Shown here piece after piece: positions 29,731 through 37,572 of a stretch of 64,000 nt of DNA. The notes under the pieces were generated by a model that saw only the letters and a list, made by a program, of their open reading frames with translations, was not told the DNA's origin and searched no databases. The stretch spans positions 4,603 to 68,602 of the forward strand of contig JAKQPK010000075.1 in NCBI GenBank assembly GCA_029564765.1, in the 5' to 3' direction. The position numbers and the translations under genes were made by a program. Numbering within the stretch: position 1 is the first letter of the stretch; each line of letters begins with the position of its first letter. Source of the DNA: Candidatus Omnitrophota bacterium. GTDB taxonomy: Bacteria; Omnitrophota; Gorgyraeia; Zapsychrales; Aceulaceae.

Positions 29731-32700
29731 ATGAATCGAAGCTTTGGGTTGGCTATTGTGATTTTTTCATTGTTTGTTGTTGCGCCGGTCGTGGTATGTG
29801 CATCTGAGAATGAGACAGCTCAAGGTTCCCAAGGTTCGTCCCTTGACACTAGCGAAATGACGCGCGCAAAGGAAGATCAAGAACTTTTATCGCGATCAAA
29901 AGGTCCTTCTTCCGGCCAATCATCAAAAACCACCCTTTATACGGACAAGGCATTTCAATCTGTGGAAAAACTTGATGTCGATCCCGCTACCGGAACCGCA
30001 ACCGCAGAGATACCAATTTCGGTCCCGTCAGGCCGCGCAGGGATCCAGCCAGCCATTTCTTTATCGTATAATTCAAGTTCGCCGAACGGTATCGCTGGTA
30101 TGGGCTGGAGCTTGGAATTCGGCAGGATCAGCCGTTCGATCAAGTTTGGAACGCCAACGTACAGCGCCTCTGATAAGTTTGTCTTGGCGCAGGCAGGATC
30201 GCGGCAAGAATTGGTCGATGTCAGCGGTAACGGAACATTGTTTCGTCCTGAGATCGAAGGCGCCTTCATGAAAATTGAATTTGTCAGTAATTCGTATTGG
30301 TGCCTGACCGATCGAAAAGGTGTTCGTTATTATTTTGGTCAGACGAATGATTCGCGAGTGTTTGATCCGAGCAATAGCGCGAATGTCTTTGAATGGTGCC
30401 TGGATAAAGTGGAAGACCTTTATGGGAACTACATGACGATTTCATACATGAAGGATCAAAGCCAGATATATCCTTATCAAATTCTTTATACAGGAAATTC
30501 TCAAAATAATTTGTCGCCGTTTGCTGCGGTCGAATTTGAATTTGAGAACCGTTCAGACACCATGTTCTCTTATTTCAGCAAGTTCTTGATCAGGACGGAA
30601 AAACGTTTGTGCGCTGTCAAGGTCTTTGTCCAAGGCGCGCTTCAAGGTAAATATCAATTTTCGTATACGTTAAGTCCGATGACCCAACGCTCGCTTTTAA
30701 CCGCTGTGACGCAGTATGGAGCGGATGGCGTCAGTAGTTTACCAGCGACAGTATTTTCGTATCAGCAAAGCGACAAGGGATTTCAGGCGGCGACAGGATG
30801 GACTGTACCGGCTGGCGCTCGATTTTCTGAACATCAGCAAGGCGGGCGTTACGCAGATTTAGGATCGCGCATGGTAGATGTTAACTCGGATGGGTATCCA
30901 GACATTGTCAAATATCATGAATATCATGGCGGAGGAGTGACGAGAGAAACATTTTTGCATGACAAGAACCAAAGCTGGGTGGCATCGCCCGCGAACTGGA
31001 AATTCCCGACGAATTTGAGTAATTTTTTAGCAACCGCTCCAGAGATCGACAGAGGGTACGGAGTTTCTTTAGCCGATATTAATGGAGATGGATGGGTCGA
31101 TCTTGTGCGACATTTTCAGGATCATCCGCCGGCTAACGGTGGAGTGATAACCAACCAAGTATTCATTAATAATCATTTAACTGGTTGGAATCTTGATGTT
31201 AATTGGCCACTTCCCAATGACGGTGTTCTGCCGATCACTTGGGCCCTTGGGCAACCGGTTTATTCGTATCATGAATATACCGGGAATATTTTGGACGATG
31301 TTAATGGCGATGGATTTACAGATTATGTGAAATCAAAAGAAGAAGGCTGGGGTCCTCATACGCACATGACGTTCATTAATAATATGCCGACAGCTAACGG
31401 CTGGACTTATCAAAGCAGCTGGAATACACAGGCATCGGTTTATATGGATTTTGCGCATGGTGCTGTTTTGCTTGATCTTAATGGGGACAATCTTAAGGAT
31501 GTCATGTATTCCAAAGATGGAACAAAAAAGGTTTTTATCAATAATGGTACGACATGGGTCGAGGATGCAAGTTCACCCTGGCTTAACGAATTCGGTTACA
31601 CAAATTTTAACGACGGTTCTACGCAGTGCGCGGATATTAATGGCGATAACCTACCAGATCTGATCGTTTCAGATGATAATTCGCAAAAGGTTCTTTTAAA
31701 TAATGGGCATGGCTGGGTCTTAGATAATTCATGGGTTGTTCCAGGAAACCTAAAGAGCAATGGGGCAAAGCTCGCCGATGTCAATGCCGATGGCATGCTA
31801 GATCTTGTGAAACATTTTAACGGCAACACACCGGAGGTGCATATTAACAAAGGGAAAGTCCCGGACCTTCTTGTTGCAATGGACAATGGAATGGGTGGGA
31901 TTAAGGAGATCGTTTACGATTCCGCCTGTCATTACAGCAATACGTTTTTTCCGTTCGCGGCGCAGGTCGTTAAAACATTAACCTTAAGCATCGGTGTAGG
32001 CGATTCTTACACGACGACATACGACTACGCGAATGGGTTTTGGAACGCGGAGAAAAGAGAATCGCGAGGATTTGGTTATATTAAGGTTTTAGATCCAGAC
32101 GGTAATTATAGCGAAACCTATCTGTTGCAGGATGATGTTTATAAAGGAAGGATTGACCGTCAGGAAAATTATAATGCGGTAGGTCAGCTTTTTTCAAAAA
32201 CAGTTTACCAGTGGAACGCGCAACAACTTTTTTCAGGGGTGAATTTTATTTACTTAGCGCAAAAGGATGATTTTATTTACGATGGCAATGCGACGGGCGT
32301 GCGCACGCAGGAAAAATATTTTTACGAAGGATCGCCGCAGTACGGGAACCTTACCAAGGCTGTACAGCTTGGAAAAGTTGATCTTCTAACAGGAAGCGAC
32401 ATCGAAGCGGACAAGCGCAGCACGGAAACGACATATCATAATAATGTTGCCGGAAATAATTGGTTGCTGGGGTTGCCCAAAGAAATTCTTTCCAAAGACA
32501 ACGCGAGCGCACAAGTGCGCAAAACGTGGTTTTATTATGATGGAAGCAATAACATCAACACGGTCCCGACCTTAGGACAGTTGACCAAAAAAGAACTCTG
32601 GGGAGGAAGCCAGCCGGGCGCGGTTAATCCCGTGACGGAATATGCGTATGATGGCTATGGCAATCTTTTGACGACCAAGGATCCTAATGGCCATGTTTCA

Positions 32701-37572: not shown

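Follow-up and report, generated by a model that had tools for sequence, protein, structure and literature searches.

We examined a 64,000-nucleotide stretch of DNA from a Candidatus Omnitrophota bacterium (GenBank assembly GCA_029564765.1, contig JAKQPK010000075.1, positions 4,603 to 68,602 of the forward strand; hereafter, the window) and, within it, a single giant gene whose product is built like the TcB and TcC subunits of tripartite Tc toxins joined in one chain (a BC fusion). The gene is one unbroken frame encoding 2,613 residues, with its ATG at 29731 and its stop codon at 37570-37572, and a ribosome-binding site (RBS), GGGAGGA, stands 5 nt upstream of the start codon. An initial annotation, made from the letters of the window without database searches, had called this 2,613-residue open reading frame (ORF), and the call stands: the frame runs through without a frameshift. 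The mature protein has a computed mass of ~283 kDa. Together, the features listed in Table 1 argue for an RHS polymorphic toxin that is predicted to be exported by the Sec pathway, to cleave itself and to carry an enzyme-like C-terminal payload, with a candidate immunity gene directly behind it.

Table 1. Features of the toxin gene and its immediate surroundings (positions in the window; residues of the precursor)
Feature	Residues	Position	Strand	Basis
TcB-TcC-type (BC fusion) RHS polymorphic toxin precursor	1-2613	29731..37572	+	Intact ORF, RBS, domain and PDB matches
Sec/SPI-type signal peptide	1-24	29731..29802	+	Read from sequence; predicted cleavage after VCA
SpvB/TcaC N-terminal domain	85-245	29983..30465	+	Pfam PF03534, E=1.7e-29
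Six-bladed integrin-like FG-GAP beta-propeller	383-700	30877..31830	+	Six motifs; Pfam FG-GAP_3, FG-GAP
TcdB_toxin_midN region	678-805	31762..32145	+	Pfam PF12256, E=2.2e-21
YD/RHS shell, N-terminal part	~806-1454	32146..34092	+	RHS_repeat, YD_repeat_2x; PDB Rhs shells
Polar linker opening the insert (~72 residues)	1455-1526	34093..34308	+	No family match
Three tandem Ig-like beta-sandwich domains (~130 residues each)	1527-1656, 1657-1793, 1794-1927	34309..35511	+	
YD shell, C-terminal part (TccC-like half)	1928-2213	35512..36369	+	Aligns with TccC3, TccC2, YenC2
Rhs-associated core and aspartyl autoprotease site	2214-2298	36370..36624	+	Rhs_assc_core TIGR03696, E=3.5e-22
Payload part 1, Gly/Ala-rich glycine-zipper-like hydrophobic segment	2299-2465	36625..37125	+	Composition, GxxxG count
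Payload part 2, predicted circularly permuted NlpC/P60-type Cys-His hydrolase domain	2466-2613	37126..37569	+	
Lipoprotein (101 residues, lipobox IYGC), candidate immunity protein		37569..37874	+	Start overlaps toxin stop (ATGA)
Best sigma-70-like promoter match, TTGACA-17-TATATT with TG		26848..26876	+	11/12 consensus matches

Overall architecture of the toxin precursor

The precursor begins with a predicted signal peptide of the Sec/signal peptidase I (SPI) type. By a rule-based reading, which bears out the signal peptide of the initial annotation, the N-terminus (MNRSFGLAIVIFSLFVVAPVVVCA, followed after the predicted cleavage site by SENE) has an Arg in the n-region, a hydrophobic core of ~17 residues and a V-x-A site, and contains no lipobox; a Ser/Gln/Glu-rich linker of ~60 residues comes next. 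Comparable N-termini are found in all of the 40-odd close relatives, and among 54 distant full-length relatives, drawn from many phyla, a crude heuristic detects a signal-peptide-like N-terminus in 48. Judged from these N-termini, the signal peptide appears to be a family-wide trait.

Profile searches identify the SpvB, FG-GAP, RHS-repeat and Rhs-core domains that the initial annotation had named, and because these are high-scoring profiles on a 7.8-kb unbroken frame, chance can be excluded for the matches. The SpvB region aligns with the YenB, TcdB1 and SpvB chains in the PDB. The propeller carries exactly six D-x-N-x-D-G/N-x-x-D repeats, where at least six had been proposed, at residues 383, 449, 523, 582, 635 and 683, and their Asp/Asn positions do not vary among 17 aligned relatives. 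By analogy with Tc toxins, this propeller would be the counterpart of the TcB gate that docks onto TcA. The YD repeats give an RHS_repeat match at E=1.3e-44, and the best solved-structure matches of the protein are TcdB2-TccC3 fusions (E ~1e-35). Both the profile and the structure-database searches thus support the earlier description of a Tc-toxin B+C fusion.

The RHS core ends in DPTGHF, as first noted, with the motif beginning at residue 2294. A residue-by-residue comparison with TccC3 pairs D2267 and D2294 with D651 and D674, the catalytic aspartates of TccC3 (PMC7861908), and R2254 precedes them. The three autoprotease residues R2254, D2267 and D2294, together with G2297, are invariant in 17 relatives, in agreement with the autoproteolysis boundary that had been placed here. 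Cleavage is predicted after H2298, between DPTGH and F. Two Rhs proteins with the same payload family (P0121 and P0122) carry NNPVNYLEDGNAWF in place of the ...DPxGH of the core, so that the second catalytic Asp is not in place, and may be non-cleaving variants.

The C-terminal payload

The payload that follows H2298 comprises 315 residues (31.2 kDa, isoelectric point 8.6), or 320 when counted from D2294. The initial annotation, with ~320 residues, had its size right but missed its nature, as it did the downstream lipoprotein, the triple immunoglobulin (Ig)-like insert and the Omnitrophota origin of the locus. The first part of the payload, a leader of 167 residues, is 25% Gly and 21% Ala, contains only 8 charged residues and includes hydrophobic windows. 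It holds 17 GxxxG motifs, compared with 10.1 +/- 2.5 in shuffled sequences. No Pfam family matches the leader, and the same type of leader stands ahead of unrelated C-terminal domains in relatives.

Of the His and Cys residues in the terminal domain, only H2504 and C2571, the latter within a CST motif, stay unchanged across 11 aligned homologues. An AlphaFold model of the domain (pLDDT 77.5) locates the Cys where a helix begins and the His within a strand. Because the invariant His precedes the Cys and the two residues take these positions, the model assigns the domain to the circularly permuted NlpC/P60-type papain-like hydrolases, with H2504 and C2571 as the predicted catalytic residues. Its target would be peptidoglycan or an acyl-lipid. 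The closest systems are YiiX/YaeF (Peptidase_C92), the permuted NlpC/P60 proteins of the LRAT/PLAAT type and TseH, a type VI secretion system (T6SS) effector. In the model, the domain shares with YiiX/YaeF and LRAT-like proteins a papain-like fold, a His N-terminal to the Cys and a Cys at a helix N-terminus. Its sequence similarity to YiiX/YaeF and LRAT/PLAAT lies below family thresholds, however, and unlike them it sits on Rhs tips, joined to a preceding glycine-zipper leader.

At the sequence level, neither half of the payload matches Pfam, NCBIfam or PADLOC, even at E<=10, and a comparison of the payload with the PDB yields a chance match only. Family support among the homologues is weak, with NLPC_P60 (PF00877) matched by 5 of 11 (best E 0.0043) and Peptidase_C92 (PF05708) by 2 of 11 (best E 0.0077); neither the terminal domain nor any homologue has a Pfam match above the gathering score. 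A Pfam scan of the payloads of eight relatives gave no more than hints, all sub-threshold, of glycine-zipper and lipase families. When the terminal domain was searched exhaustively with HMMER against 1.84 billion representative proteins, nine matches came out, one of which (P0127) is a repetitive false positive. This search was the informative one; a word-indexed search with the payload returned four proteins and was swamped by the low-complexity Gly-rich part. All true matches lie directly behind the same glycine-rich leader, several of them on the Rhs tips of otherwise different proteins.

The locus in relatives and the downstream lipoprotein

In seven related loci (L001-L007; 36-88% protein identity), the toxin gene is located downstream of a block of histidine kinase, response regulator and HD-GYP genes and a divergent cupin-helix-turn-helix (HTH) regulator; the contig of L002 starts ~400 bp upstream of the toxin gene, which cuts off the regulator side there. 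The gene serS follows within 8-10 kb after the toxin gene in five of the seven. Because the position of the toxin gene is kept across these loci, the gene appears to be inherited with the chromosome in Omnitrophota, its tip and the following gene varying. Named homologues belong to Candidatus Omnitrophota, one of them being that of Ca. Aceula meridiana (52% identity). In a scan of species-representative genomes, confirmed related loci number at least 578; among the matches listed, those of Omnitrophota are the closest, and further ones belong to Nitrospirota, Desulfobacterota, Anaerolineae, Gammaproteobacteria and a number of archaeal assemblies. BC-fusion relatives at L023, L027, L044, L060, L065 and L087 belong to archaeal-labelled assemblies (Woesearchaeota, Methanosarcinales) and to the complete Methanolapillus ohkumae, in which the match is limited to the C-terminal part; these archaeal occurrences could be real transfer or binning errors.

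The lipoprotein encoded directly after the toxin shows a weak BamE/SmpA-OmlA match. In L001, whose toxin has 53% identity overall and 81% identity in the terminal domain, the gene that follows encodes a 48%-identical lipoprotein and likewise overlaps the toxin stop. In L002, the toxin (P0001) is 88% identical and has a different payload, and the next gene encodes an unrelated secreted protein of 216 residues. L089 contains an orphan Rhs-tip cassette whose payload is a diverged member of the family; the gene behind it specifies a lipoprotein that is 29% identical (E=2e-9). In most relatives, the gene after the toxin encodes a small secreted protein or a lipoprotein. Because the lipoprotein co-varies with the payload across syntenic loci, which is the signature of a toxin-immunity pair, it is likely the cognate immunity protein. 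An immunity protein in the form of a periplasmic lipoprotein would in turn imply a target in the envelope.

Short Rhs-tip genes (358-492 residues), each followed by a small gene, are found in L088 (299-1777) and L089 (601-4059). The two cassettes of L089 stand in tandem, and one tip gene product (P0130) has its own signal peptide; by their layout, these cassettes look like typical orphan toxin-immunity arrays. Just past the candidate immunity gene, at 38114-38641, the window contains a REP-associated tyrosine transposase of the IS200/Y1 type (NCBIfam E=3e-24). A transposase is found at the same place in relatives (L001 18563-19153; L004 7308-7847 and 15509-16114; L090 1224-1883), and in L090 it is followed by an orphan fragment of the payload family (P0123), which hints at a role of the transposase in cassette exchange. 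Further downstream lies a second lipoprotein gene (38767-39324; CC0125/CC1285 family, NCBIfam E=3e-31), which probably has nothing to do with immunity.

An Ig-like insert in the YD shell

Residues 1455-1927, an insert of ~470 residues, break the YD shell. The three Ig-like repeats of the insert were found with a hidden Markov model built from copies aligned by eye; comparing the insert with itself by BLASTP missed them, and no match to the insert appears in Pfam, NCBIfam or PADLOC, even at E<=10. The triple repeat is shared only by the seven closest homologues, among which the polar linker that opens the insert is poorly conserved. More distant relatives carry LamG or FN3 domains in the shell region, with the Pfam order YD-shell, Laminin_G_3, YD-shell. 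Because relatives hold LamG or FN3 where the toxin has its Ig-like domains, the insertion site reads as a variable slot for binding-type modules. We infer that the inserted modules face outward and bind a target. Residues 1001-1460 resemble generic Rhs repeats more than TcB; the TcB/TcC junction is therefore not mappable by sequence, and we make no claim that the insert marks it. Elsewhere in the family (P0010, P0016, P0031 and P0033), some members carry Hint/Hedgehog-type autoprocessing domains (PF07591, PF14890, PF01079, PF05203) and others bear dockerin or purple-acid-phosphatase-N modules, so that processing and decoration vary widely on one scaffold.

Search for TcA and secretion partners

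Canonical TcB and TcC carry no signal peptide, assemble in the cytoplasm and are released by lysis through a type 10 secretion system (T10SS). No holin/endolysin cassette lies near the toxin gene described here. Pfam scans of 30 ORFs of the window, including all those of TcA or VgrG size, identified no TcA, VgrG or PAAR; for PAAR, about ten window ORFs shorter than 300 residues and the upstream 79-residue ORF stood outside the scan. The scanned ORFs have housekeeping or regulatory domains or none. No gene of TcA size stands within 8-10 kb of the toxin gene in the seven syntenic loci. Across 80 further related loci, none of the six large neighbours scanned is TcA-like: they comprise one unassigned protein, a beta-helix protein, a subtilase, a KAP NTPase and two proteins with an FGE-sulfatase and a phosphomutase domain, respectively. 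The sole TcA-sized flanking ORF among these further relatives is the beta-helix protein. That no TcA, VgrG or PAAR gene is adjacent, as the initial annotation had remarked, holds for the scanned ORFs of the window and, as regards TcA, for the flanks of the seven syntenic loci (no gene of its size) and the six large neighbours. A motif search of the window found no second RHS gene and no orphan Rhs tip.

Comparison with known systems

The combination of signal peptide, SpvB, propeller and RHS repeats is that of an already-defined class and no oddity. The TcdB/TcaC class of polymorphic toxins has a signal peptide, SpvB, an integrin-like beta-propeller, RHS repeats, variable C-terminal toxins including Tox-NLPC/P60, and immunity genes, with Euryarchaeota among its listed holders (Zhang, de Souza, Anantharaman, Iyer and Aravind 2012, Biol Direct 7:18; PMC3482391). 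All of these features recur in the Omnitrophota toxin, immunity by inference, whereas Omnitrophota is not among the phyla listed for the class. The payload and the insert, unmatched in the three databases named above, were not compared with the toxin families of that study. What is new and lineage-specific in the toxin is its occurrence in Omnitrophota, its triple Ig-like insert and its rare payload module; in the genomic surveys of Omnitrophota that we consulted, such Rhs or Tc proteins go unmentioned.

A comparison with the Tc cocoons TcdB2-TccC3 and YenB-YenC2 (PDB 4O9X, 6H6E, 4IGL) reveals the same SpvB domain, six-bladed propeller, TcdB_midN region and YD shell, the same Rhs-core aspartyl autoprotease with PxxxxDPxG, and a C-terminal region of ~30 kDa (here, 315 residues), predicted to be encapsulated as in the cocoons. 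Unlike them, the toxin is a single polypeptide with a predicted Sec signal, shows no TcA in its locus or in the related loci examined, carries the ~470-residue shell insert and is followed by an immunity-like gene; it is predicted to act on the bacterial envelope, not in the eukaryotic cytosol. As estimated from alignment coordinates, its SpvB-to-TccC-like section is ~315 residues shorter than that of the TcdB2-TccC3 fusion.

Bacterial teneurin-like proteins (BiTLPs) are Sec-exported YD shells whose Rhs core is autoproteolytic; they encapsulate polymorphic C-terminal toxins and have an immunity gene downstream (PMC13018210), and some of these toxins are hydrophobic and membrane-permeabilising (Raoelijaona et al. 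2026, PMC13018210). However, BiTLPs (PDB 9IFO, 9PT5) have FN-plug closure, an NHL propeller and C-terminal domains of ~15 kDa, whereas the present toxin is closed by a TcB-type SpvB and FG-GAP arrangement and has a 31-kDa payload. Against 9IFO and 9PT5, only the generic YD shell and the core match. With no NHL or FN-plug match in the toxin, we reject its membership among BiTLPs, and the "teneurin-like shell" that the initial annotation had offered as an alternative falls with it.

In Tse5 of Pseudomonas aeruginosa, the Rhs shell chaperones a hydrophobic C-terminal fragment and hands it to the membrane without a translocator, for which cleavage by two core aspartates is required (PMC10684867; PDB 8CP6). 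Tse5 is, by analogy, the best precedent for a TcA-less cocoon with a glycine-zipper leader. It differs from the toxin in that it is PAAR-linked and T6SS-delivered, with a C-terminal fragment of 16 kDa and no enzyme domain, and no sequence similarity was detected between the payload and Tse5.

Proposed mechanism and alternative explanations

Starting from the architecture, the fold assignment and the covariation of payload and lipoprotein, we favour, with a probability of roughly 60%, the view that the gene encodes a Sec-exported, autoproteolytic TcB-TcC cocoon that delivers an envelope-directed hydrolase independently of TcA, with the lipoprotein as its immunity protein. The core would cleave after DPTGH (H2298) and the unfolded 31-kDa payload would be kept inside the shell. 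Once past the inner membrane, the cocoon would get to the cell surface or the medium, and the inserted Ig-like modules may bind the target cell. The hydrophobic leader could then be released from the shell and insert into the target membrane without a TcA channel, as with Tse5, and the hydrolase, if active, would thereby arrive at the envelope and cut peptidoglycan or lipid. In the producer and its kin, the periplasmic lipoprotein would neutralise the payload. The toxin is likely used in antagonism of neighbouring bacteria, or against the cells that serve these putatively predatory nanobacteria as prey or host.

Several points weigh against this view. Secretion, cleavage, toxicity and immunity are all predictions from sequence. 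No type II secretion system (T2SS) or other secretion genes are found beside the toxin locus, and the top structural neighbours of the hydrolase, YiiX and 3kw0, are without established function. The search for TcA covered the window and related loci, and a TcA gene could lie elsewhere in the genome. BamE-like lipoproteins with the motif IGMTKxEVxxxWGEP also follow some unrelated payloads (L006, L007, L090), so that they may represent a common immunity scaffold or have a more general or accessory role.

A bolder version, which we consider improbable, holds that the Omnitrophota BC cocoons are a self-sufficient, TcA-independent delivery system, vertically inherited at one chromosomal site phylum-wide, in which the shell module (Ig-like in this toxin, LamG or FN3 in others) would recognise the surface of prey or host and the leader would carry the enzyme from the cocoon into or across the envelope of the target. 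If true, the cocoon would be a core weapon of predation or parasitism and the first case of a TcB-type propeller gate that opens without TcA.

The alternative that survives best, itself rather improbable, is that the glycine-zipper segment is the toxic part, a membrane-depolarising pore-former like the C-terminal fragment of Tse5 (Tse5-CT) or a BiTLP C-terminal domain (CTD), with the NlpC/P60-like domain accessory or inactive. Hydrophobic C-terminal domains of Rhs and teneurin-like proteins do permeabilise membranes, and the leader, enriched in GxxxG and rich in Gly and Ala, is conserved across relatives with differing terminal domains. Yet the terminal domain is always accompanied by the leader and retains an invariant His and Cys at positions consistent with catalysis, and the pairing of variable terminal domains with variable downstream genes suggests that specificity resides there.

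Less likely still, the protein would serve as BC subunit in a tripartite Tc toxin of the canonical kind, whose TcA pentamer, encoded elsewhere in the genome, would dock onto the propeller and inject the payload into eukaryotic (protist or invertebrate) cells. Its best solved-structure match and its SpvB, propeller and TcdB_midN regions would fit such a role, as would the size and basic isoelectric point of the payload, since TcC hypervariable regions span 201-400 residues (PMC7861908). Natural BC fusions have moreover been noted in TcA-bearing bacteria, to be then set aside in Tc surveys (PMC7861908). What argues otherwise is that the toxin family has predicted Sec signals that canonical TcB and TcC lack, that no TcA appeared among the scanned window ORFs, the flanks of the seven syntenic loci or the six large neighbours, and that a target in the bacterial envelope is indicated by the lipoprotein, which co-varies with the payload; TcC effectors directed at eukaryotes are normally without an immunity gene (PMC7861908).

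We regard as very unlikely a non-toxic surface adhesin or structural protein, used as teneurins are, with the lipoprotein as a helper of envelope assembly. The Ig-like, LamG and FN3 modules inserted in the shell, the syntenic, apparently vertical and core-gene-like behaviour of the locus across Omnitrophota, and the recurrence of BamE-like lipoproteins behind different payloads would all suit such a protein, but they leave aside the invariant autoprotease triad, the polymorphic C-terminal regions of proteins that are 88% identical, the orphan cassettes of tip and small gene, and the absence of FN-plug and NHL. Delivery as an Rhs effector by the T6SS or another contact-dependent machine, suggested by the match of T6SS effector Rhs cores to the C-terminal third of the toxin, is hardly credible and was rejected, as no PAAR, VgrG or prePAAR is linked to the toxin or found in the scanned neighbours and the N-terminus consists of a predicted Sec signal and SpvB.

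The protein belongs to a large class of TcB-TcC fusions with predicted Sec signals, which comprises these at least 578 loci in many phyla, was described by comparative genomics in 2012 and is, in the literature consulted, known from that approach alone. The class poses the question of how a cocoon opens and delivers its cargo without the TcA syringe. To it, the present instance adds a very rare toxin module, a putative variable slot for binding modules, an immunity-like partner and a conserved position in Omnitrophota, a phylum of uncultured and putatively predatory nanobacteria. Both the payload and the lipoprotein have a size that allows direct heterologous testing, and we see in the find a useful lead, not a new principle.

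Neighbouring genes

Three genes precede the toxin gene on the same strand. They encode a 79-residue ORF (26917-27156), a 547-residue protein (27146-28789) with an N-terminal anchor, weak beta-propeller matches (BNR/Sortilin, F510_1955-like) and a coiled-coil tail, and a 96-residue secreted protein with a YHxxxC...PCxxC motif (29333-29623). Because the beta-propeller-type matches are only weak, no role is assigned to the 547-residue protein. L001 and L003-L006 have genes of the same order and matching size on the upstream side of the toxin gene, their homology being judged from size and order; in L002 the 96-residue gene precedes the toxin gene, and in L007 a 269-residue Big_7-like protein replaces the upstream genes. 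These genes may encode accessory or export factors.

The promoter match listed in Table 1 is a possible start of an operon of the 79-residue, 547-residue, 96-residue and toxin genes. It belongs to a back-to-back pair of sigma-70-like matches (26761-26876), both TG-extended, of which the one on the - strand has 10/12 consensus matches. Because the pair stands between the cupin-HTH regulator and the toxin-side genes, it suggests that the regulator controls the toxin operon. Genes for a "23S rRNA-intervening sequence protein" (PF05635) recur in or beside toxin loci at varying positions (window 28776-29222; L004 2973-3344 and 6131-6484; L006 6490-6894; L089 128-493).

The rest of the window is made up of housekeeping genes (plsX, fabH, fabD, recG, serS and others) with even GC content. 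Two segments, 14001-18000 (ketoacyl-synthase and amine-oxidase genes) and 38001-40000 (the transposase and lipoprotein genes), have a GC content of 0.38-0.39 compared with 0.44-0.47 in their surroundings. At 44591-47794, a gene encodes a 1,067-residue fusion protein that joins TPR repeats and a spermidine-synthase-like domain to an MFS-like membrane region and is conserved beside serS in L002.

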